This document shows positions 2,850 through 47,900 of a stretch of 64,000 nt of DNA, one piece after another; within the stretch, counting starts at the first letter, position 1, and every line of letters starts with the position of its first letter. A program made the translations under genes and the position numbers. This DNA comes from Raja brachyura (Eukaryota), in NCBI GenBank assembly GCA_963514005.1, contig OY740796.1, positions 9,672,001 through 9,736,000 on the forward strand, given 5' to 3'. The notes below the pieces were generated by a model. The model was not told the origin of the DNA. It saw only the letters and a program-made list of their open reading frames with translations, and made no database searches.

Positions 2850-3070
2850 AACACAGAACTGCAGATGCTGGTTTACCAAAAAAAATCACACAGTGCTGGA
2901 GTAACTTGGTGGGCCACGCAGCCCTTCTGGAGAACATGGACAGGTGATTTTTTTGGGTCGGGAACTGACGCCAATCCATTTTCTCCAGTGATGCTGCCTG
3001 ACCGGTCGAGTTACTTCAGCACCTTGTGTCATCGTTTGTATTCATGTTCCACCAATTACCTGCAGTACTA
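2850..3070. mobile_element. Palindromic (inverted dimer) Penelope-terminus element
   Basis: GAACTGCAGATGCTGG..GCTGGAGTAACT on the left, AGTTACTTCAGCAC..CTGCAGT on the right. Confidence 0.7.
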
Positions 3071-6856: not shown

Positions 6857-6955
6857 CAGTCTGAAGAAGGGGCTCGACCCGAAACGTTACCCATTCCTTC
6901 TCTCCAGAGATGCTGCCTATCCCGCTGAGTTACTGCAGCATTTTGTGTCTACTTT
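6857..6955 (+). mobile_element. Penelope-like terminus with a hammerhead-like motif
   Basis: CAGTCTGAAGAAGGGGCTCGACCCGAAACGTTACCCATTCCTTCTCTCCAGAGATGCTGCC..GCTGAGTTACT. Confidence 0.75.
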
Positions 6956-14965: not shown

Positions 14966-16065
14966 CCATCTCAATTATTAGGAGAAGTGAATTAAAGTAA
15001 TGTAAGAGTGGGAACTATAATCCTTCAAAGTTTTCTGGATTTGACAACTATTGCATTAAATTGAATTGTTATTTATGTTGCTTTGCTATTTATCCAAGCA
15101 AACATAGACCAATGCAACCATCATTTATTGTCAGAAAATGATTGGAAGCTATGGTTAAGATCTAGCTCTGGGTAAGATGAACATCTAGAACATATTCAGA
15201 AAGAACCTGCATTGCTTTGAATAGGATGGCTCACACATGACAAAGTTGATTCGATTTTTGAAGAGGTTGGGAAAGTAACGGACTAGGAAATGTCCACAAA
15301 TGTTATTTACATTGACTTTTAGAAGACATTTCAGATCCGTTAGCTGGTTGAAGATCTAGGATCTGAAAGCAAATAGTTTACTTGATTTGGATGCAGGCTG
15401 TGTGCCAGGAGACTGGGAATAACGTATAATGGACTCAAATTGGCAGGACATTGCTGGTAGTGTCTAGAATGGATTTATTTTGGCATGCAAATGCTAACCA
15501 TATTCATAAATTACTTCCATGATGGTTTAGAAACACACAAATCCAATTTTCCTGATAACACAGAGAGAGATGGCAAAGAAAGCATGCAGATGGAAGCATT
15601 ATAAAATAAAGTAACTTTGATCCAATAAGCAAATGGAAAAACAGATTTTCACCATGGAAAATATATTATCGTCTGCTTCAGATCACAAATAAACCTTGGA
15701 ATACTTTCCAAATGATGAACAGTTAGAAACAATGAAAATACAATGTGATTGGGAGCCCAACATATAATGATGATAGATCATGAAAAAAGTGCAGAAAATA
15801 ACCAGAGGATAATGAAATGCTAGCCTGTGTGTCTGGAATAGAAGGGGAGACACTGCACAAAGCCTTAGTTAAATCACACATGAAGAACTGTAAGCAGTTC
15901 TGACATGGGAATTAATATTGAGTATAGAAGTTGGGAGGCCACGTTGCACATATAAAAGACATTGGTGAGGCCACATTTAGAGTACTGTTTAAGAAAGAAC
16001 TGCAGATGCTGGAAAAATCGAAGGTGGACAAAAATGCTGGAGGAATTCAGCGGATGGAGAGAAGG

Positions 16066-16173
16066 AATAGTAAGATTGAACGAGAACTTACCAGTTCGAA
16101 GGTTGATCTTTATTTCATGAGGAGTTGCGATGAGGGATTTCGTGAAGAACCCGCCAGCACGCATGCGCGACAT
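16066..16173 (-). repeat. DIRS 3' terminal repeat with extension
   Basis: TTCGTGAAGAACCCGCCAGCACGCATGCGCGACAT (16139-16173) is inverted at 20950-20984. The outer part pairs only with the ICR. Confidence 0.9.
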
Positions 16174-16288: not shown

Positions 16289-16401
16289 CACGAAATCCCT
16301 CATCGCAACTCCTCATGAAATAAAGATCAACCTTCGAACTGGTAAGTTCTCGTTCAATCTTACTATTTCATTTCGGAGTCACGTGAGTGACTTCGTGAAG
16401 A
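16289..16401 (-). repeat. DIRS internal complementary region (ICR)
   Basis: 16289-16367 is the exact reverse complement of 16066-16144 (79 bp). 16363-16401 is the exact reverse complement of 20975-21013 (39 bp). The two halves overlap at CTATT. Confidence 0.95.
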
Positions 16402-16544: not shown

Positions 16545-17508
16545 TCATTCGGGGACATCTCCATGTTCTTGACCTGCATTCAGCATGGCCTCCGCGAACT
16601 GTAGAGGAGCGGCAACAGATGTATTGTAGAACCGCTGGAAGGTGGCTTCGTTCGTCATCCTACTGTGGCAAGAATATGGTCCATGGGCACCTCCATGACC
16701 CTTGCCGCCGACGTTGATGCATGCCCTGGTGGAATGGGATTTGAAGACATTAGTGTCAACACGTGACTTACCCAAGACGATCCTGAGCCCCATGGATATA
16801 GTCTGGACCGTCACTCTATGGTGAGGTTTCTCCATTCCTTCAGTTTTCTCGTCACTTTCACATAGTGACGGATATGGGCGGCTAAACATAGCCTTGCATC
16901 AGCGGGGTATGCCAGGAACTTCAGCTGCAGCCCTGTGCACCCAGGTCTATGCTGCTTGAGTAGCTCGTCTATGACGAAGACTACTTCTGCAGGGGTAGAG
17001 ATCATCCTGTCGATCCGGATTTTGTGGAGTGTCTGTACCCTCTGCGCTGAAGTCAGTGCCAGTAACATCACCAGCTTCAGGGTGAGTTTGTCCAGCTCCA
17101 GGCCCTCCATGGGCGACCACGTCCTGAGCAGGGTGAGTATTTCCCCGATATCACAGGTGATATTATAGCGTTGTCTGGGCGGATTCGAATTGAATATTCC
17201 CCGCATGAGTCTGGACACCAGCCTGTTGGATCCTACCTTAATATTGAGGTAAAATGACAGCGCACTCCTGGCGGTGTTGATGGCACTGTAGCTCAGGTGT
17301 TCATCATGGTGCAACCCCGCCAGGAATTCCAATACCTCGGTTATGGTTACAGCGTTATCAGTAATTTGGGAGCGGCTGCAGTAAATTACCACTTCCGGAT
17401 GTGTGAGAGGTATTGCCGCCAGGTGGACTCCCGGCATGACGCTCCGATGGCATCCATGGTTCTAGATGATAGACCATACCGCAGTAATGGCCTGTTCAGA
17501 ACCTTCAT
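16545..17508 (-). pseudogene. DIRS tyrosine recombinase (frameshifted)
   Basis: Pieces in ORFs 17386-17700, 16811-17437 and 16545-16889: N-terminal STWRQYLSHIRKW and LSYSAINTARSALS, catalytic R in SAQRVQTL, HxxR in FKSHSTRA, catalytic Y in EATFQRFY. Several indels. Confidence 0.92.
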
Positions 17509-17510
17509 GG

Positions 17511-18980
17511 TTATCGGCGGTCCTTGATATGTTTGGCCGGAAGTGGAGGTGCTGGGTTGAGCTGATAATGCGGCGCCCGCATTACCCATGCTGGCCGCTG
17601 GGGCCCTAGTCCTAGAAGGCCTCGGTTGTTGAGGCTGCCGAAATTGAGGCGGAGCTGGAGCATAGGTCCTTGCATAGGTCTGGAGGCGGAGCTGGAGCAT
17701 AGGTCTAACGGCAGGGCCTCGTGGCCTGAAAATGGCACTTCCCTGGCCTGCTACCTGGTCGAGATATGTGACCGCATGAGTCCCACCGTCTTAGCGTGGT
17801 CATCCAGCTCCTAGACCCTCTTCGGGAGGTCTTCCCCGAACAACTGTCTGGGTGGCGGCGTAGGAGGTGCTTTGCATAACCCCCCAAATTTTGGGTTCAG
17901 GGTGGGTTTAATGACGCTCTTCCTGAAGGCGTTTATCTCATATTGTGGTACACAATAGAGCCAGAGCATCCTCCTGCTTGGTGCTCAAATCCTCCCCATC
18001 CACCGACCGCACAAACGCGGTAATCCCAGCAGTGAGCAGCTTCAGGATCCGCTGGAGCTTCATCTCCTGGGTCCTGATCCTTGGGCTGATGTTGCCCCAG
18101 ATTGGCGTATTGACTATGGGCACGTTGAGGGAGTTGCAGTTCGCTGGGCCTTGTATCTGTTTATGGCCTCTGATAGGACCTCCTCCTGGAGCTGATGATT
18201 GGTCAGGAAGTCCACGGTGGCAGCCAGTTTGGGGTTGAGGGGAAGTCCCATGGTCTCCGGAGAGGCAAATTTCGCCGCCACATCAAGGAGTTCTTCCGGC
18301 GGCACCTCCGATGGAACCGGTGTAGGGTCTGCAAATTCCTCCTCCTCTGGCTGCCGCAGGCTGGCTGTTGAGACTGGTGAAACCTCCCTGTGCCTTTTGA
18401 TGATGGATGCCTCCTGTCGTTGGTTGTGTAAAAGGAGCTCCAATAGCTGCTCCATACGGTCAATACGCCCTTCGCCCTGAACACTCGGGCGGTCGGAGTC
18501 CTCATGCTCTGATGTACTGCTGAGGCTCCTTTCATCGGCCCGCACCTCGTCGAGGTGAACCCGGTGCCGGAAGTTGTCGCTGCCAGCCGCCGCAGCAAAG
18601 CTGAGCGATTCCCGCGCGGGAGGTGTGTTCGAACGCCTTCGTTTGGCGGAGCCTAATGCCGCTGCCACGGAGGGCAAACGCGGCGGGGAGTCGGCACCCA
18701 ATGCCTCAGCACGGTGACCCGACGCCCACGCGGGCTTGCCGGCTGCCCACATCGTGGACCTTGCCGACGCATGGTCTCTTCCTCCCATCCATGGGGGACT
18801 CGGCGACCGTGGCGGGAGCTCCACCCGAGTGACTCTTTCACCATTAGCTCCATCCTGGCCACGCGACCGCTGCCGCTGCACATGGACAACAGGTCGACTT
18901 CCCCAGGCCCTGATGAGTCGCTGGGGCTTCTGCCAGTAGGTCACACCTCTACGAAGTGGCTGACAGGTACTCGTCAGCAC
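17511..18980 (-). pseudogene. gag: DIRS gag-like ORF1 (frameshifted)
   Basis: Manual read across frames gives P.NC.SL.VP.VN.PIW, EMKLQRILKLL, EINAFRKSVIKPTLNPKFGGLCK and LFGEDLPKRV, typical of DIRS1 ORF1. It ends at TAA 17513-17511. The start is uncertain. Confidence 0.8.
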
Positions 18981-19555
18981 CCGCTCCTGCGGGGCCGAAC
19001 GACTTCCGCACGGACAACCCGCTAGCCCAGTGTCTCTCGGACCTCAGCGGCCTCTCTACCTGACGAGCAGGCAGAGGAAAGGAGTCGGAACCGGTCCCCA
19101 ATACCGGCTCCGTGGTCCGTGCAGGCACACCGTCACTCTCACCCCGCGGGTCTGTGACGGCGCTTGGCTGGCTTTACCCGTAGCAACGGGATCGCCTAAC
19201 CGTATGCTGCTGCCACCGGTCTGCGCTCCGGCAGCCTGTTCCGGTGCAGTGCCGGTACCTCCTGCTCCCGCAGGCTGTACGACTTCTGCACGGACATACC
19301 GCTTGTCCGCCGTCGTTCGGACCTAAGTGGCACCTCTGCCTGATGGGAAGGCAGAGGGAAGGATCGGTACCGGTCCCCATTACCGGCTCCGCTGTCCGTG
19401 CAGGCCTGCTGTCACCCTTAACCACACGGGTCCGTGAGGGCGCATAGCCGGCTTTCCCGTAGCAACGGGGATGCCTGGCCGTAAACTGCTGCCACCGGTC
19501 TGCGCTCCGGCAGCCTGTTCCGGTGGAACACCGGTACCTCCTGCTCCTGCAGGGC
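18975..19555. repeat. ~280-bp tandem repeat (about 2 copies) inside the DIRS
   Basis: GGCAGAGGRAAGGA..ACCGGTCCCCA at ~19070 and ~19350. CTGCTGCCACCGGTCTGCGCTCCGGCAGCCTGTTCCGGTG at ~19208 and ~19487. Confidence 0.85.
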
Positions 19556-20152
19556 TCCCCAACTTCCAGCAGATCCATCACCGGCCCGCAATCTAGCAGG
19601 TTACCCCCGGTGGTATGTCGATGCCTCCTGCTGCAGCGGGGCATGACCTGTGCGCAGCTCTCCCCCTGCTCTGGTACCTGCATAGTAGGGGAAACAAACA
19701 AGCCGCCGAGCGGGTCACATGTTACGCACCTTAGCCCCACTGTCACTATGCTTAGGTGACAGTGGTAGGGAGTCAAGGCCTACCCTGCTCCCGCGCGGTG
19801 CTCCACCAATTTGTGGCCCCATGGTCAGCCGTGGTGGAGAGACGGGTCCTGGCTACGCAGGGCTCCCCGACCTCCGCGTTCTACTGGAATGGTGGCTGCT
19901 GATTTCCATCTGAAGTCGCACGGCCCTAGGAGACCTGCTGTGGTGCCTTCATTCTGGTCTCCATCCATCTGTAAGCAAACTCTCATACAGACGCTTAGCT
20001 ATTCAAGGTTAGTCTCTTACCTGAGGGTCTTTAAGAAGTATGGTGACCAGCCTCTCATGTTTTAATAACTTCTATGTGCTGGCAGTCTCAACTTCTTGAA
20101 GAAATGCATACCCTGGAGTGGCAAGGCACTTTAATGTAGACAGGCCACAGTA

Positions 20153-20662
20153 TCCCTGCAGCTGCAGTGTGGAGTCAGACTGCCTTTGTATGCAAGCCTG
20201 CTCCTTCCTAAATGCCAGCAACCCGCAGAGACCCCTGCGGGCTGCGGTGTAGAGTCGGGCTGCTGCCCATGGCAAGCACTGCAACCCTTACTCCACATGC
20301 ACACCGTCAGCCCGCAGTATCACCCCCGCGGGCTGTGGTGTAGAGTCGGGGCTGCCGCTCTGCCGCTCCTAACTTTGAACGGCGAGCCTGCAAGCCCCAC
20401 TCCTGCATGCACACCGTCAGCCCGTGGTGTCCCCCGCGGGCTGTGGTGGAAAGTCGGGGCTGCCGCACTGCCGTTGAACCTTTTGACGGCGAGCCGACAA
20501 GCCCCACTCCGCTGCATGCCGCCAGCCTGCGGCGTCCCCCGCGGGCTGTAGCGCAAAGTCGGGGCTGCCGGTCTTTTGACGGCGAGCCAGCAAGCCCCAC
20601 TCCTGTGCGTGCCGCCAGCCCGTGGCGTTCCCTGCGGGCTGCGGTGTGGAGTCGGGCACCCC
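20153..20662. repeat. ~80-107-bp GC-rich tandem array (about 6 units) in the DIRS leader
   Basis: Recurrent CCCYGCGGGCTGYGGTGTRGAGTCGGG at ~20154 (degenerate), 20232, 20324, 20431, 20537 and 20630. Confidence 0.85.
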
Positions 20663-20949
20663 CTCTGCCGTCCTCCGCCGGCGAGAGTGTGACCCTGGAC
20701 CCTCCTGGGTCAACGGGCTTCCCGACTCCAAAGTATTGGAGCCACCGGTGAATGCCGCAGCAGTCCGATCCGAGGCGGCCTCACAAAGTTCCTGGACTCC
20801 TTCCACGTTCCTGTTAGGAGAGAAAACAGTCCCCACAACAGGAAAACACCAACTCTAGGGGGCTTAGCCTTACCTGAGTCGGCCCTCTGAAGGGCTGGTG
20901 GGGAGCCGCGCCCCACCTCCAGCCGTCGGCAGCAATGCGATGCGACGAT

Positions 20950-21013
20950 ATGTCGCGCATGCGTGCTGGCGGGTTCTTCACGAAGTCACTCACGTGACTC
21001 CGAAATGAAATAG
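20950..21013 (-). repeat. DIRS 5' terminal repeat
   Basis: Inverted copy of 16139-16173, and its outer 39 bp are complementary to the ICR. Confidence 0.9.
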
Positions 21014-23189
21014 ACAACATTTCGGGTTGAGACCCTTCTTCATACTGATGTCGGGGGGGCGGGAAAAAGAAAGGAAGAGGCAGAGACGGTAGGCTTGTGG
21101 AAGAGCTGGGAATGGGGAAGAAACCAAGGACTATCTGAAATTAGAGAAGTCAATGTTCAAACCACTGGGGTGTAAACTACCCATGCAAAATATGAGGTGT
21201 TGTTCCTCCAATTTGCGCTGGGCCTCATGGAGGCCTAGGTCAGAAAGGTTAGATTCGGAATGGGAAGGGGAGTTCAAGTGCTGAGCTGAAGTGCTGAAGT
21301 ATTGTGTTCAGTTTTGGGAACAATGATAAAGGAAAGATGTTGTCAAGATGGAAAGGATGCAGAGAAGATTTATGAGGATGTTGCCAGGACTTGAGCGTCT
21401 GAGCTTTCAGGATAGGTTGAGTAGACTAGGAGCGCAAGAGGATGAGTTTAGATGTATTCAAAACCATGAGAGGAATAGATTGGGTAAATACACAGAGTCT
21501 CTTGCCCAGAGTATGGGAATTGTGAACCAGAGGACATAGGTTTAAGGTGAAGGGAGGGGAAGATTTATTAGGAACCTGAGGAGTAACATTTTTATACACA
21601 AAGGGTGGGGGGCGGTGTATGGAACAAGGCATCGGAGGAGGTAGTTGAAGCAGGTGCTATCACAATGTTTAAGAAACATTTAGATCCGCACATGGATAGC
21701 ATAGGTTTAGAGGGATATGGGCCAAATGCAGGCAGATGGGACTAGTGTAGATGGGCCATGTTGGTTGGTGTGGGCAAGTTGGGCCAAAGGGCCTGCTTCT
21801 ACACTGTATAACTCTACGACTGTGAGAAAAGATGGATAATACAGCTTTAAAGTGTAGATTTATTTGAATGATACTTGGATGCTCGTGGTTAAATTACACA
21901 CTGGGTTTTTATTCCCAAAATACAGATAACAACTGGTTAATCGAATCAAATTTCCAGATGTCATGGAAAAATGATAGAGCAATTAGGCATAAGCAATTAC
22001 TGCCAGTTGGAGAATCTAAAACTGGGGGCTGAGACTATAACTTGGCATTAGGAAATACTTCTAGATGTTTGTTCACTGCAACTTTAAATACAGAAGTTTG
22101 GAACAATCCTCAGCATATAGGTTAATGCATCCAAAAACAGAAAACTACAGATGTGGCAAATTGGAATAACACAGAATATTCCAGAAATACTCAGCATTTC
22201 AGGTTGAACATTTATAGAGAAAGGAAATGAACCACAGGTCCATGAGTGGCCAAGGGCAATCATTGCCATCCAATGGGGGCAACATGGTTTGCTATGGTAT
22301 TCACAAGGGCATTATTATTGGGGCATTAGTTGCAGGTTCATGTACGTTTCATTTGAGAGTATTATCAATGATACCTGGGACTCTGCTGATGTCTCACGTC
22401 AGATAGATCGGGTAGTCGTCCAATTGATTACCTTTCTTTATTTTTGTTCCGACATATCTCGGCAATTTTTCATTTTGTCTTGGAGATCCCACTGCTGACT
22501 AAAGGTGCAGCATGTTCTGGAATGCAAGTCTTTAGTTCTACAATCAAGATGCCAAGACATTGCCTTGCCCACCGTCTTTATGATCTCCAGAGCTCCAGAC
22601 TGTTTTTGAATCAAATTGATTGAAGCCTGATTTCTGTGACAGTGGTGATCTCAGGTGGAAACGGATGCTTGATGCATAATGTTGTTAAATAAGATGTGGA
22701 TCCAGTAATGCGCGGTGACAAAAGGTTTTCAAGTCAGGATCCTGCACAACTTGGAGGAAACCAACACGTGGGGATGTTCCATTTGTCCATTGCCCTTGCC
22801 CTTCTTGGCGGTAGAGGCCATGGTGTCAGACTAGCCCAAGCATGGAACTGCCATGCATGACTTCTAGAGGAATATTTTTAAGAATGCTTCAGTCTTTTAT
22901 GGCCCTACCATCATTGAGATGCATGCTAGTAACTGAACTATGCATTGCTTTAAATTGCCAACAAAAAGCAGACTGATATAATCTCAGTCTGTATCACTTG
23001 CTCTTTGGAATACCAATGCACCTCATGATGCAAATTCTTAATGGCTTTGGCACGATGTAGGCGAAGGCAGTGTAAGCAAAGAGATAACTTCAATGCAAGA
23101 AAAGCAATCCAGAGATGCAAATTCAAAGCACAGCTGTGGGTTGATAATGTGGAATTAAAAAATGCCAGGCATAAGACATACAAACTCAA

Positions 23190-31550: not shown

Positions 31551-34248
31551 TATAATGATGTTATGAGGATGGGATATCTCAAGTCCTGTGACTGATTATT
31601 GTATAAAAGTTTCTCTTTTCAAGTATTCCATGCATAAAAATGGGTCCCAAACCAAAACCTCACTTATCCATGTCCTCCGGAGATGCTGCCTGACCCGCTG
31701 AGTTCCCGCAACAATTTGTATCCCTTTGTGTAAACCAGCATCTGCAGTTTCTTGCTTCTACTTAATCTAGGGGACCTTTGGATAGGATTTCCATCCCCAG
31801 AAGCAACCCACCTAAACACATAATACTTGCATGTATACCCTCCTCCCAGTGAAGGTCCCACGGCACCCATTAGAACATAATTAGAATGTACCGTGCCTAC
31901 GCAAGCAGCACCCATTATGCCTGTAAACATACTTAAAAGGGCAAAATGCATGACATTCACAAATACATGTTTATGCCTTGTCAATCATTTTCCACCTTTA
32001 TCTATGCTTGATCTAAAGAATATTTTCTCTTTTCATTCTGAGACAAAACCATTTAGACTCTTACTCCATTTATAAAGTTGTTGTTGCCACTCCAGATGGC
32101 ATACTTTTGTACAACATGGGGAAAATGCACATGCAGAACTATCCTAAATACCTTTGAATGTGGAAGCAAAATACACTGATTGATAGAATCTTGAAAAAGA
32201 AACAGAAAACGTTGGGAAATGCTGAGCGATTCAAGGAATATCTGTGGCGAGAGAATAAGAGCTAATATTTTGATTGATAATCTTTTATCGGAACTGAAAA
32301 ATGTTAATGGCAGAACGGTAGGTGTGAGGAGATGAGGGAGGGAAATGGGGCAGTCTGTTTGGAAGAGAGGAAAGGTTAATCAACAAATGCTGCAAATCCA
32401 AATGGTAAAAGTGGAAAAAAATGGTAAAGAGAAAGGTTTGGATGGGCATAGCAGAATCACGACCTAAGAATGCAGCCCAACGTGGGAGCAGTGGTTTTAA
32501 TCTCAAATTGTTTGAATGTAATGTAATTCTGAATGACAGCCCATCAAAATCAATCAAATTCAACTTAAAGGTGAAGTTCTTCAGATGACAGGGAGGCAAG
32601 GTGAAGAATTAGCGAAAGGCCATTTGTAGTCTGAGCTTTCTCGGGGGGAATTAATGGAGGTGTTCTGCAAATTCAGCACTCAATCTGTATTTTGTCTGCT
32701 TAATATTGAGGTAACCACATTTTGAGCTCATTAAAATGAGAGACATACAAGTAAATTGCTGTTTCACTGAGAAATAGTGGAAAGATATACATTGTAGCAT
32801 AACTTGTGTTTTCATAGGAAGTTTGTTAGATTATCAATAAAGTGCACCCATTTCTTAAAAATGCAGAAAGCTGAGGGGACAGAAAGATGGTTTTGGTGGT
32901 GGCATGATACTGAAGACACGATGATCAAAAACAAGCACAGAGTGCTGGATTGCAACAGCAGGTCAGGCAGCATCTCTGGAGAACATGGGTGGGTAACCTT
33001 TCCTCAAACTGATGGAGAAACAATGATCAGTTGTATATGGGGACAAACTGGTAAGGTGAGGGGAATGAATTCTGGAATAGTTGGAAATAGGTGAGAAAAA
33101 AAGTGTGAGAAATGGAACAGACACTCTCAAGAGCAGTTTCAATACATGGTGGTCAAAGAAATGGAGGAAGGGGTGGGAAAAGTTCAAATTAGATTATATG
33201 ACAGTGAAGGGAGAATTGAAATCGGATGCAAAGATGGAAAGAACAGTAAATAGTTCCTAATACAGTGATCACCATATCAGAAAAACAGGCGGGGGAGCGA
33301 AAAAGTGCAGGATTTAACCAAAATATTAATCACAAATCTCACAGCATGGCACACATGGATTGAACCGACAAGGATTACTCTAGTGACACCGATCTGCAGA
33401 GCTAATGGAGTCAGAAGAGAAGCTGTTGACTATAAATTTGTTCTGGGCAACTATCACAACAATTCACCACTCCAATTCCAATGTGACCCATTTCCTTCAC
33501 TGTTCCAAAGAAGCTCAATATAGGCTCCTATTTCAATTGAGGACTTCATAACCTTTCGGACTGTGCATGCAATTCAGCAATTTCAGAAAATATCTTCTGT
33601 TCACATTTTCTTCAACAGCGAGTGTTGGAAATGGTCTTGTAGTGCTAATGTATTCTTTCTCGATACCACCTTTTCTATCTAGGCATCTCATTTTCAAAAG
33701 GTAAAACAAACTGCAGACACAGTAAATGTTTCTGAAAATATTCAGGTCAGGCAGCATCTTGGAGGGAGTGAAGGGTTAATGTTTCAAGTTGTTAACCTTC
33801 TAATGAATGCGTCATAGGCATTTATTCCAGCATACAAACATATAAATGAAAGGTAGGAATTGGCCATGACCTAGATTTCAGCCCAACATTTCCTATTAAG
33901 ACCAGCCACCCATTCCAGGTGGATAAATCTTGGATAAATCTTCTCTGAATTGCTTCAATTTCTTCCAATGCTCATCAGCGAGTATATAATGTGAAGTAAT
34001 GAAGAGATAGGGAAAAGTCATCGTCCACATATGCAGCATGACCTATTGACACTATCCAGCAGTTTTATTTCATGATAACCCTTTGCTTCGGACAGTCCAT
34101 CAACCCTCTTCTTATTTAATCGCTCATGTAATTTTTCAGTTCTGATAAATGATCATTCACCTGAACAGTTTCTCCCCAGAGAGATGGTTCCTCGTCAAGT
34201 AATTTGTGGCACTTTACTTACTTTGATTCAGAAGGAAATCAATCCATT

Positions 34249-34852: not shown

Positions 34853-35070
34853 ACTGCAGATCGATACAAAATGCTGGATAACTCTGTGGGTCAGGCAGTA
34901 CCTCTGGAGAAAAAGGATGGATGACATTTTATGTCGGGATCCTTCTTCAGACTGTGAAGAAGGGTCCCGACCCGAAACGTCACCCATCCTTTTTCGTCAG
35001 AGATAACGCCTGGCCCGCTAAATTACTCCAGCAATAAGCAAAGGTATAAATCGGCAGTTCTTTGTTTCCA
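34853..35070. mobile_element. Palindromic Penelope-terminus element
   Basis: Symmetry centre CTTCTTCAGACTGTGAAGAAG at ~34952. The arms carry opposite-strand hammerhead-like cores. Confidence 0.75.
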
Positions 35071-36106: not shown

Positions 36107-36240
36107 GTCTGAAGAAGGGTCCTGGCCCAAAATATCATCCATCCATTTTCTCCAGAGATGCTGCCTGACCCATTGAGTTACTCCAGCACTTTGTGCCTAT
36201 ATTCAGTATAAACCAACACCTTGGGTTCCTTTCTACACAG
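36107..36240 (+). mobile_element. Penelope-like terminus fragment
   Basis: GTCTGAAGAAGGGTCCTGGCCCAAAATATCATCC..CTCCAGAGATGCTGCCTGACC. Confidence 0.7.
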
Positions 36241-37879: not shown

Positions 37880-39620
37880 TGGAATCATAGAGCACAGAAA
37901 TTGATCCCTTACCCCAATTTATCCATGTTGACCAGAATGTCCATCTGAGCTAGTTCCATTTCCTCACATTTGATCTATTTCCCACCAAACCTTTGCTATC
38001 TATTGATTTGTTCAAATGTCTTTTAAATGTGTCTGTTGTACCTGCCTCAACCACTTCATCTGCCATGTACCATCCTCTGTATGACAAGGTTGTCCCTCAG
38101 GTTCCTATTAAATCTTTCCCCTCGTCATACATCTGTACCCTCTAGTTCCCGATTAGTCAACCCTGGTGATAAAAAGACAATGAACATTCACCATATCTGT
38201 GCCCCTCCTGATTTTATACACCCGTAGGGGATCACCCCTCACTCCTATCCTCCAAGGAAAGAAGTCTTAGACTGATGATGAAGGTTCTCAACCTGAAACA
38301 TCACCCATGCCTTCTGTCCAGAGATGCTGCCTGTCCCGCTGAGTTACTCCAGCAGTTTGTGTCTACCGAGCCAAAAGCTTTCTTCATCACTCCGCCTACC
38401 TGTGGCACCACACCCAGGGAACTGTGTGGTTGTACTCCCAGGTCCCCCTGTTTAGTTTAGTTTAAGATATACCTTTTTAGGCCCTGGAGATTCATCCAAC
38501 TTCATACATTTTAAGGCATCCAGCACTTTCTCCACTGTAATGCATACTATCCCCAAGGTCACTCCACTAACTTTCCTGAGTTTCCTCATCTTTATGTCTT
38601 TCTCCATGCCCAAATACAGAGGTGAAATGTTCATTGAGGACCTCACCCACACCCTGGAGCTTTGCACATAGATGTCCACTTTGGCTTTCGAGGGGCCATC
38701 CTCTCGACCTAGTTACTCTTTTAACCTTGGTACACATAAAATCTCATTGGATCCTCCTTACTCTTGTCTGCCAAAGCTTTCTCATGCCCTCCCAATTACC
38801 TGCTGAAATATACTCCAGCATTTCCTATACATTTCTGGAGATCCACTTGATCCCGGCTGCCTGTTTGCATCTTTTTTTCAGTCCACAGCTTCTAACCAGG
38901 GTTCCCCACTGCCAGCCTTGCCCTTCACTCTAATAGGAACATGGAGACCTTGAACACTCACAATGTCACTTTTAAAAGCCTCCCACTTGTTTAATACCCA
39001 TTTGCCCACAAACAACTTACTCCAATCAACTTTTACAACTGCCTGTCAAATACTAAGCTGCACATTGGCACAGTTGTTAGAGCTGCTGCCTCACAGTACA
39101 AGATACCTGGGTCCCATCCTGACCGGCTGCTGTCTGTGTGGAGTTAGCACGTTCTCCCTGTGACCAAATCAGTTTCCTTTGGGTGTTCCAGTTTCCTCCC
39201 ACATTCCAAAGACATACTGGTTTGTAGATTAACCTACCTCTGCAAAAACTGCCCCACTAACATGTAGGGAACGACTAGATAGTGAGATAACAAACAACTA
39301 GTGTGAATGGGTAATCAATTATTGGCGAGAACTCAGTGGGGCTATTTTCACACTATATCTCTAAGCCATCAAAATTCACCTTGCCCCAATGTAATAAAAC
39401 CTGTGCAGCAGTTCTGCTCTATTCAATACCTATTTGACAACTAATAGAACTATTAGTCTTGAAGTACACCCTCACTGACCCCTCAGTACTTGCTTTGCCC
39501 TGTTTCCCAAGAGTAGTTCAAGTTTTGTCATCACCCTGGTAGGGCCTTTTATATATTACCTGAGGAAACTTTCCTGAATACACGCAAAACAAATTCCACC
39601 CCATCTAAGCCCTTTATTAA
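37880..39620 (-). mobile_element. Cluster of degenerate CR1 fragments interrupted by a Penelope terminus (~38270-38370) and an HE1 SINE
   Basis: CR1 UTR at 37880-38270. ITVEKVLDALKCMKLDESPGP at ~38480-38550. DGVEF..CIQESFLR.Y at ~39540-39610. Confidence 0.7.
39058..39365 (+). mobile_element. HE1-type V-SINE
   Basis: TGGCACAGTTGTTAGAGCTGCTGCCTCACAG..GGGTCCCATCCTGACC..GTCTGTGTGGAGTTAGCACGTTCTCCCTGTGACC..TTTCCTCCCACATTCCAAAGAC. Confidence 0.85.
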
Positions 39621-44746: not shown

Positions 44747-44950
44747 GACACAAAAAGCTGGAGTAACTCAGTGGGAAAGGAAACATCTTGGAGAGAAGGA
44801 ATGGGTGACGTTGTGGGTCGAGACCCTTCTTCTTCTCGACCCGAAATATCACCCATTCCTTCTCTCCAGAGATGCTGGCTGTCCTGCTGAGTTACTCCAG
44901 TTTTTTTGTGTCAATTTTCAGTTTAAACCAGCTTCTGTTGTTCCTTCATA
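44747..44950. mobile_element. Palindromic Penelope-terminus element
   Basis: GACACAAAAAGCTGGAGTAACTCAG..GAGAGAAGGAATGGGTGA / TCACCCATTCCTTCTCTCC..CTGAGTTACTCCAG..TGTGTC. Confidence 0.8.
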
Positions 44951-47900
44951 CATACTTGTATTGAGTTAGCCCAATTGTGATGGGCGGAATGGCAGCAATC
45001 TCTGCCTCCTTGTAATCCAGTAACGGCAACCTCCACTGTTGCTGTATCAAAAACCGAGAATTCCCCACTTATCAGTGCTGTGGGAGTTACAAAAATATTG
45101 CAGATGCTGTACTCTTGAGCAAAACACAAAGGAGTGGAGGAACTCAGCTGGCTGGAATAAACCCAAAATGTTGTCTGTTCATTCCCTCCATAGATGCTGC
45201 CAGACCCACTGAGTTCCTCCAGTTCGTGTTTTGCACTGTGGTCTTACCTTCATCGTCCCTGGCAGATGTGGTTCTTACTACTACCACCTCGTGGATATTT
45301 AGGGATTCCTAATAAATGCTCATCTTGCCATGATTTCCTCAACCGATAAAGATTAATTTAATATCTTATATTTTCTACACAATTATTGAGTTAATGTGCA
45401 TGGCCCAATTTTAGTAGATCCTCGTGCACTAGGGTTGTACATTGTTTTTCATCTTTCCACAATGATACTAGTTTTCCTTTGGATCAATTTTATTGCTTTC
45501 ATTCTTTTAAAGTAACAGCTAAATGAAATGGCACTCCTGAAAACAAGTTTATTAAGGTCATTAATTATACTGAACATTTCAAGAATTCTATTAGCTTTAA
45601 AATAGTTATAGATAAAGACTGGGCGGGGTGCGTTAAAATTCTGAACTTGAACAAGTCTAACTTTGCTGATATCAGTCAGGAACTTGTGAAAGTTGATTGG
45701 ACTTGGTTGTTTGCGGCCAAAGGGACATCCATACTGTGGGATGATGAGAGTTCAAGGCAAGAATGTTCCTATTAGACTGGACAAAGCAGGTGGGTCGAAG
45801 GAAGCTTGGATGGTGAGAGAGATTTTAGTACTGGTCTGAAAAGACAAGGAAGTATGGGCCACGTAAAGGAAGTTTGGATCAAGTTTATCCCTGGAGAAGT
45901 TTCCTGATATTGATGTGACATTGTGGTCAGCGTGGACAGGTTGGCTCGAAGGGTCTATTTCCTTGCTGTACGAGTCAATTACTATAATATAATATTATGT
46001 CAGTACTATGGATATTAAATTGTTAGTGCTCTTAATGCTAATCAGATATTATTTAGTAATTTATGTTATATTTACAGAATACAAATTTACAGTTGCAGAA
46101 TTCCTCTCGTGATTTCAACCAAACGGCAATACCTTTGCCAAATAGTGATATTTAAATACCACGCAGGATTGTCAGAACATTTTTGCTCAAATTGAAACAA
46201 TAACCGTCCGAATCAGAAGCAAGAAGAACTTCTTTGTTTTTAATACTTTTCCATTTTCTGTACCAGCTCGAATCTTAAAGGACAACATTTCATGTAACTC
46301 CTCGTGATAATTATGGATTTAATAACTTACACTGCTAACAATATTTTGTTTTATGTATCACAACACAGGAAGGAGGCCATTCACCACATACGGTGAATGT
46401 CAATTCCTAGCAGAATCATCCAGTCATTCCCACTGCCCATCTTCCCACGACCCTCTACCCCTGAAACTCACTCTCTCTCACATGCCTATCATTGCTCCCT
46501 TCATCTTTTTTTATCACTACACAGTACTTTGCTCATAATCAGGAATGTGTAAAATAGGTAAATGTGTCATTTTTGATAGTTCTCGTGGTTTGAGTATTTT
46601 TGACTGTGGCCATTATTTTCAGAACATCTGACTTGAGGAGGGGAGTTAAATGCAGCAGGCAGAGTGTTGAACCCTGCCCAATCACACTAGGTGTACAACA
46701 TGCACACAACTAACCACCAATGGTTTAAAACTCTGCTACTGAAACTCAATTTTAACAAGGATTCCATTAAATGATACCGCAGCTTGTTGCAATGTAACGT
46801 ACTCCACATAACTCTTCCACAAATATTCCTTGACAGATCATTGGGACTTTGCACAGTCAGGAAAAATAATTTGGTCAAATGTTCTGGTAATCATTTTTGC
46901 CTTTGTAGACTAGCATAAATTATCGGCCAAAACTGTTGGTTTCTGCAAGCCAGTCAAGACCATACCCTCCTTGCATAAACTCTGTTTCTATAGATTCTGC
47001 CTTCAAGAAAACTACATATAAATGTAGGCACAAATATTAAATTATGTTTACTGATTTTGTAGCTGTACCTATCAACCTTACTGTCTGATTGCCTAAGTGC
47101 AAAACCACATCAGCCTTTGAGGAATGAAGGGATCAAATATCCATCTAGAAAGAAATCCACCATCCTTTACTGAACGTCTAAATGTATCTCCAGACCCAAG
47201 AAGTTTCAACAGATCTCTGAAACGTCTTAGCAAGTCACCCTATTCAAGGACCACCCATGATTAGAAATCAATGCTTGTCCGATCATTGGCACCCATATCC
47301 CATGTACAAATGTAAAAAAACTAATTTCATTTTGCTTAGCAAGAAGATATGAAATCTGATGATTTATTCACCTCACATTAAATCCTAACAGAAACCCTGC
47401 TTATTCAGGTATCGCAATTTACTGTTGCACAATGGAAGCTGCTCTGGCTGGTCCAAATCCCGAGTTAATGAAGCACCCTCTCGGTTTGAGTCTAGGATAT
47501 GAATCAAAAATGTTGCATGTAGGAACAAAGATTCCTGAACTTCAGGGTAAAGAGGATCCAATCAAAGTTAGCAGTTTTAACTCAGTTTACATTGTTTGAG
47601 CGACCTATCACTCGGCTTTCTGGTGAATTGGAGATGAGGATGGGATATATGGCAGAAAATGTTCCGTGCCTGACCTTCAGGAATATGTATAGAGGCGACT
47701 TATTATGGCAGATCGGGGTAGGTCAGATAACAGCTCAAAAAATAGAAAATGAATGTGCAATTGATGTGGCCTAGATAATACTCTGATCATCTTTAACTTG
47801 ATGTGTGACATTGAACATGCATTTATTGACCACAATCTGAAGTTATCAACTCAAAAGTTGTGTTAATTAAAATAAATGATTCTTATTCTTATACATTGAC

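Follow-up and report, generated by a model that had tools for sequence, protein, structure and literature searches.

A DIRS1-type retrotransposon without pol, probably founded by a spliced RNA

The window, as we call the whole 64,000-nt stretch of DNA analysed here, contains a DIRS1-type element on the minus strand (21011-16066; 4,946 nt) with intact termini (Table 1). ATT stands at both element ends, the insertion is precisely at an ATT, and the circle junction reads AAT. The inverted terminal repeats (ITRs; 21012-20950 and 16111-16173) are 87.5% alike, and both ICRs (internal complementary regions), which overlap at the 3-bp circle junction, match the element ends at 37/37 and 79/79 nt. An empty site composed of the flanks and one ATT gave an ungapped alignment with further copies of a host repeat (86% over 51 nt), and the insertion is of the DIRS1-like kind, by recombination at a trinucleotide without a longer target duplication. 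The host repeat, which may resemble cartilaginous-fish SINEs, belongs to a dispersed short family (2943-3033, 6862-6952, 31635-31725, 34955-35045, 36110-36200, 38276-38366, 44824-44914 and 45146-45236). With the element in one copy, this family is possibly a preferred target. No second copy of the element was found in the 64,000-nt window, an Rfam search gave 0 matches, and the ESM Atlas and a bacterial promoter scan yielded nothing informative.

Table 1. Features of the element and of its insertion site, in window positions
Feature	Position	Strand	Remarks
Left half of target host repeat	21012..21048	-	ungapped alignment of one-ATT empty site to other repeat copies
Left terminus / left ITR	20950..21011	-	starts with ATT; first 37 nt exactly complementary to left ICR; pairs with right ITR
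Candidate 5' leader intron, retained, weak	20810..20873	-	top-scoring donor and acceptor of element (weight-matrix scores)
5' leader, GC-rich tandem units	20209..20663		~91-108 nt each
Second candidate leader intron, retained, weak	19677..20020	-	
Tandem duplication	18980..19553		279 nt, ~81% identical
gag remnant, start uncertain	17511..18752	-	at least 2 frameshifts, 2 premature stops; matches DIRS gag regions by tblastn and phmmer
Stop-free stretch, -1 (pol/YR) frame	17503..17613	-	37 codons, over gag end, finishing ATG AAG
Junction	17502..17503	-	~1.9 kb pol (RT-RH-MT) missing
YR (tyrosine recombinase) remnant	16545..17508	-	88% identical to P0001; 4 frameshifts, 1 stop
Leftover pol C-terminal tail	17345..17504	-	frame overlapping YR start
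Internal complementary region	16289..16401	-	left and right ICR overlapping at AAT circle junction
Right ITR and right extension	16066..16173	-	ends with ATT; last 79 nt exactly complementary to right ICR
Right half of target host repeat	16030..16065	-	

Both ORFs of the element, gag and YR, are dead. The gag remnant, a broken version of the DIRS1-like gag ORF1, matched DIRS gag regions with at best 50.6 bits by phmmer, and its landmarks are an LFG motif at 17843, an FLG-like motif near 17615 and a probable stop at 17513-17511. That this TAA is the gag stop is plausible but unproven: it shares its frame with the conserved LFG motif, but the YR frame is open as well, from 17790 to the junction. 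In 9 relatives the segment comparable to the stop-free stretch measures 27-41 residues. The YR ORF, as expected of a DIRS1-like element, is present but broken, with its catalytic-residue motifs (R, K, HxxR and Y) in pieces, and the reading frame that begins with MKV is closed by a stop at 17388-17386. Pfam searches with the broken window ORFs gave nothing above the cut-off. Relatives of YR carry PF00589 and PF13495, and the predicted model of one relative, P0011, matches Cre (TM 0.67, E 5e-10).

Cryptons are RT-less YR DNA transposons with YR only, no gag and no ITR/ICR system, and this assignment was rejected because gag, ICR and a pol tail are present; Ngaro/PAT elements, with split direct repeats, were rejected because the terminal repeats here are inverted. 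The internal tandem duplications (18980-19553 and 20209-20663) make the leader longer. With pol put back, the length of the element would be ~6.8 kb.

A pol profile was built from 120 of 150 pol proteins (the best 150 of 54,828 pol matches). Run against the whole window in six frames, the profile of these 120 DIRS pol segments gave no match (best -1.8 bits), and tblastn with 15 relatives found matches to gag and YR only. The first-pass annotation had seen no RT, RH or MT anywhere in the element; this was correct for the domains, but a pol C-terminal tail of ~54 codons is still there after the junction (19.3 bits; best of 300 shuffles, 7.6). Because only this overlapping tail of the pol ORF is left, we regard the element as a non-autonomous derivative of a DIRS1-like element. 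The minus-strand sequence quoted by the annotation was found as given, with the TAA followed by an ATG at 17508-17506 and the junction between 17503 and 17502. Pol is lost with precise in-frame ends, the gap beginning at the end of gag and stopping at the first helix of YR; the chance that a random deletion would be as precise is ~1.5e-4. The AAG/G at the junction (the stroke marks the join), previously taken as an exon-exon signature, is uninformative by itself: AGG is found at 2.7% of positions, and stop-ATG-NAG-G recurs at 16582. The evidence for splicing comes from relatives.

For the 3' breakpoint, a YR search gave 204 matches, of which 120 were listed. Among the matches listed, P0001 is the closest relative (88% identity), and it has L-Q before the valine of the junction. 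Scored against a matrix from 107 pols, its N-terminal extension, decoded in the pol frame, proved to be a methyltransferase C-terminal motif ending L-A-C-R (27.9 bits). Among the controls, shuffled sequences scored 7.5±6.0, with 1 of 2000 reaching the observed value, the other frame scored 7.3, and the window's own upstream DNA -22.8. Since the pol C-terminal motif stands directly before the valine in P0001, the window family had pol directly before the junction valine. The residue after the C of the motif is R in 19 pols and K in 5, making CAG ~80% likely, i.e. YTGCAG/G. The 3' end of the missing segment was probably YAG/G, as read from the P0001 protein rather than from DNA.

Altogether, 145 YR proteins were examined, and 68 could be anchored. 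K occurred one residue before the valine in 0 of 53 relatives and would there put a stop in pol; the AAG of the window thus probably came from the 5' side. In the P0011 model helix 1 comprises residues 2-11, which places the junction at the very start of the recombinase. The register also fits, since the window's ATG falls at a position held by M in 22 of 53 relatives and used as the start by 14 of 31 short ORFs (offsets -24/-25). An MKV start was seen in 0 of 3 close relatives: one shows the unspliced arrangement, and P0002 and P0003 start at internal methionines and are hence uninformative on the junction. Searches for the gag or pol of the window family with the gag end and the pol tail gave 0 of 85 candidates. 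One of 25 matches for longer YR forms, the gag-YR gene model P0123, joins mid-gag to mid-YR and so is not the predicted product.

For the 5' breakpoint, a phase-0 donor translated into protein reads [QKE]V[S/R/G/N] or MV[S...], and we scored the 60 residues that precede the first conserved motif of pol. From the best 150 of 54,828 pol matches, 103 had at least 5 residues before this motif and 47 were left out. The relaxed pattern [QKEM]V[SRGNC] was present in 37 of 103 proteins versus 13.9 after shuffling (0 of 2000 shuffles as high), and the strict pattern [QKE]V[SR] in 15 of 103 versus 6.6 (5 of 2000); because the motif sets were chosen after viewing the data, the enrichment test was not blind. 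Same-length stretches inside pol averaged 5.3, and neither reversed motifs nor I/L/A/T decoys were enriched at the pol starts of these 103 proteins. When a 20-member clade defined on a tree was removed, 24 of 83 proteins versus 8.8 retained the motif. An overlapping gag stop could by itself imitate this signal, but the donor-poor patterns compatible with such a stop were not enriched (T/I/M, 4 versus 5.0; A/D/E/V, 8 versus 12.2). Enrichment was ~3.3-fold for S, G and N after the donor-like V and lacking for [QKE]VR (3 versus 3.1). The donor excess was weak among 14 single-ORF Gag-Pol proteins outside the clade (69 of 2000), and 66 of 103 pols had no donor motif. Phase-1 donors, G[EK][FLSYCW], were enriched in the clade only (10 of 20 versus 1.9; outside, 6 of 83 versus 3.7).

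A GTDB contig scan provided full-length relatives at the DNA level, with 2 of 44 candidates confirmed (L001 and L002). These are distant relatives (40-45%) and near-complete DIRS, in which pol has RVT_1 and Dam-like domains and runs over the end of gag in the -1 frame. The first-pass annotation had asked where such relatives place RT, and the answer agrees with it: the gene order is gag-pol-YR, with pol between gag and YR in both. L001 (1-4731) and L002 (1-5373) are whole contigs of a Sedimenticola MAG record, yet they are eukaryote-type DIRS and are probably host DNA binned into the MAG.

Splice sites in L001 and L002 were scored with a weight matrix, and the score cut-off of 2.9 was set after seeing the data. 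GT donors follow the gag stop after 11 nt in L001 (rank 5 of 319) and 14 nt in L002 (rank 9 of 303); the window junction lies 8 nt after the gag stop, and all three have the same phase. With the cut-off set afterwards, a donor near the gag stop has a chance of ~3% per 20-nt stretch, or 1% with the phase. At the YR start, L002 has its second-best acceptor of 336, 8 nt downstream and in YR phase 2, unlike that of the window; L001 has none there, its best nearby site (rank 14 of 296) being 21 nt upstream. Thus, 3 of 4 predicted splice sites are present. The segment equivalent to the missing pol measures 1,866 nt in L001 and 1,931 nt in L002. The best acceptor of L001, at position 63, is also in the 5' leader. 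We also observed that an S-G in pol is conserved (102 and 90 of 120) and can encode TCAG/G (L002 3559); this site, in YR phase 2, is a candidate for a general acceptor, and its joining to the boundary donor would give the gag frame.

The best explanation of the locus, to which we assign a probability of roughly 0.65, is that a spliced RNA was reverse transcribed and so gave rise to a non-autonomous DIRS1-type retrotransposon. The parent transcript would have had a 5' splice site just past the gag stop and a 3' site (YAG/G) at the YR start, and with the pol intron out, YR would have entered the frame held by pol, akin to retroviral env splicing past pol. Because the spliced RNA would retain leader, ICR and termini, the RT and YR of an autonomous partner could copy and insert it, and the lineage would have gone on jumping in trans as its ORFs decayed. 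Such an origin suggests that a spliced DIRS RNA yields the integration enzyme and can itself jump. The earlier proposal that pol was removed as a GT-AG intron is partly supported, in that pol once stood directly before the junction, the loss was precise and in frame, and the 3' end was probably YAG/G. On the donor side, relatives have same-phase donor-like sites at the gag/pol boundary, but the window family's own GT donor was not seen. The retention of the candidate leader introns in the window copy also speaks against splicing, although these (20873-20810 and 20020-19677) score little above antisense controls.

Further points against splicing, namely that the junction is observed in one copy, that L001 has no acceptor, and that AG/GT at both ends would be a 4-nt microhomology, are also what a one-off internal deletion draws on. 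In this unlikely alternative, RT template switching or microhomology-mediated repair at the short AG/GT match would have founded a non-autonomous lineage without the spliceosome. The ends would share imperfect similarity further upstream as well, and the element folds back on itself via its ITRs and ICRs. However, a deletion leaves unexplained both why one end falls at the gag stop and the other at YR's first helix, in frame, as few random ends would, and why relatives have donor-like sites at the same boundary. Improbable, in our judgement, is that the ATG is YR's own start codon, with the breakpoint just upstream and the AAG/G junction illusory. M does occur at exactly this position in 22 of 53 relatives, and CAG to AAG needs one substitution; however, P0001, the closest relative among the matches listed, has L-Q and not M-K, the three residues before the valine all differ between it and the window, and the K, absent from the 53 relatives, would stop pol. 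An assembly collapse or a chimera between repeat copies could account for the many single-base frameshifts but is very improbable, given the precise ATT insertion between both halves of one host repeat, the error-free termini, and a junction in frame and at domain boundaries.

The later history of the element can be read from its decay. The YR differs at 11 of 151 residues common to three relatives, whereas the 116 nt compared between termini and ICRs contain no difference (P ~6e-4). According to the replication model outlined in part of PMC5633606, DIRS termini are rebuilt from the ICR in every cycle. Perfect termini on decayed ORFs therefore indicate that the last jump came after the decay and occurred in trans. 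The idea that this is a fresh copy of an intact mRNA was not borne out, as the ORFs had decayed before the last jump. For the nearby right end, gene conversion instead of a recent jump is an alternative. Within the available text of PMC7192593, the RT of DIRS-1 works in trans and a spliced reporter RNA is retrotransposed, and a truncated DIRS-1 construct did not finish the transposition cycle.

We found no explanation in the literature examined for the translation of the downstream overlapping YR ORF of DIRS. The suggestion that YR borrows the pol start codon is doubtful, since the stretch from gag stop to donor contains no pol-frame ATG in either L001 or L002; L002 shows its first Met in the pol frame 37 residues beyond the first conserved motif of pol. 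In both, a slippery heptamer lies in frame within the gag/pol overlap (L001 1473-1479; L002 1479-1485), the only one in the 392 codons of L001 and one of four in L002. None survives at the equivalent site of the window, and before pol the slippery-site motif F[FS]R is weakly enriched (5 of 47 versus 1.5; 28 of 2000). Given pol in the -1 frame, the slippery heptamers and the 37 open codons in the window, -1 frameshifting may reach pol and, after splicing, YR. These sequence features suggest that -1 frameshifting operates in DIRS, for which no paper was found in our literature search. The spliced YR might be started by re-initiation at the ATG that lies 2 nt past the stop, which is not a family rule, or might be reached by a -1 frameshift from gag, giving Gag-linker-YR; both routes are tentative and about equally probable. 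A direct in-frame Gag-YR fusion seems unlikely.

A possible second intron was noticed in a clade of relatives. Among 19 clade proteins, 10 FLG motifs lie upstream of pol, one of them at a different position, and in 10 of 10 the next residue is K or E (background 15%), which reads as a G/GT RAG donor. Further on, 11 of the 19 proteins show the acceptor-like [CF]R (YAG/G), against 3.8 after shuffling, and 0 show [CF]K. All three marks are present in 9 proteins; their spacer measures 33-91 residues and contains few GC-coded residues (0.10 versus 0.43 and 0.32), and the next segment measures 27-41 residues. These 9 (P0189, P0200, P0208, P0211, P0213, P0215, P0228, P0236 and P0245) are single-ORF Gag-Pols in which a donor-like FLG[KE] is followed by an in-frame, AT-rich spacer and then by an acceptor-like [CF]R. 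The FLG spacer is apparently a read-through intron switching between Gag and Gag-Pol, which we regard as a lead only. In the window, the frame relation and length are as expected after removal of both introns; the window family could not be placed in the two-intron clade, as its best gag matches fall outside the clade. We tentatively propose that animal DIRS1-group elements might make their three proteins from a single transcript that is alternatively spliced, with pol as an intron that has its donor at the end of gag and whose removal delivers the recombinase and, in one clade, with a small AT-rich FLG intron (retained, Gag-Pol; spliced, Gag). The window element would then be a fossil of a spliced, possibly doubly spliced, RNA turned mobile non-autonomous lineage.

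Among known systems, the element is most directly compared with DIRS1-like elements (PMC3266345, PMC9210276, each available in part), with which it has in common ITRs, a pair of ICRs that overlap at a 3-bp circle junction, a right extension, and gag followed by YR. ATT...ATT ends with an AAT junction occur in mollusc elements in Table 3 of that work. The window element differs in being without RT-RH-MT. In the available text of these two papers 'splic' occurs 0 times, and neither intron nor splicing is mentioned. The literature searched contained no account of splicing in natural DIRS or of RT-less DIRS derived by splicing, which does not establish the absence of such an account from print. 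DIRS can make up 26-30% of a vertebrate genome (PMC8498967, in the part available). If our reading is true, the splice route would be a regular source of non-autonomous, pol-less DIRS that RT-based surveys overlook, and splicing would be a point for host control of transposition. The genomic fossil and the clade-wide splice signatures give exact coordinates to test in existing RNA-seq data and genomes.

In retroviral and gypsy env expression, a 3' ORF is reached by splicing out pol, with donors usually before gag; here, in contrast, gag would stay in the RNA and the gene at the 3' side is the equivalent of an integrase. The window element is a candidate for working like a SpIRE or an env-type splice product. 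SpIREs, the spliced integrated LINE-1 copies described in the available part of PMC5860796, are spliced retrotransposon RNAs that were reverse transcribed and inserted, as is proposed for the window element, and L1 splicing is described there as inhibitory and a dead end. In our case, the splice would remove exactly one gene and restore the frame, and the product apparently kept moving. The spliced subgenomic GAG RNA of Ty1/Copia (PMC5580714, in part) involves splicing near the gag/pol boundary that sets protein output, as would be the case here. However, Copia splicing leads to a short Gag mRNA with early termination, whereas the RNA proposed here would retain its 3' end for the downstream recombinase.
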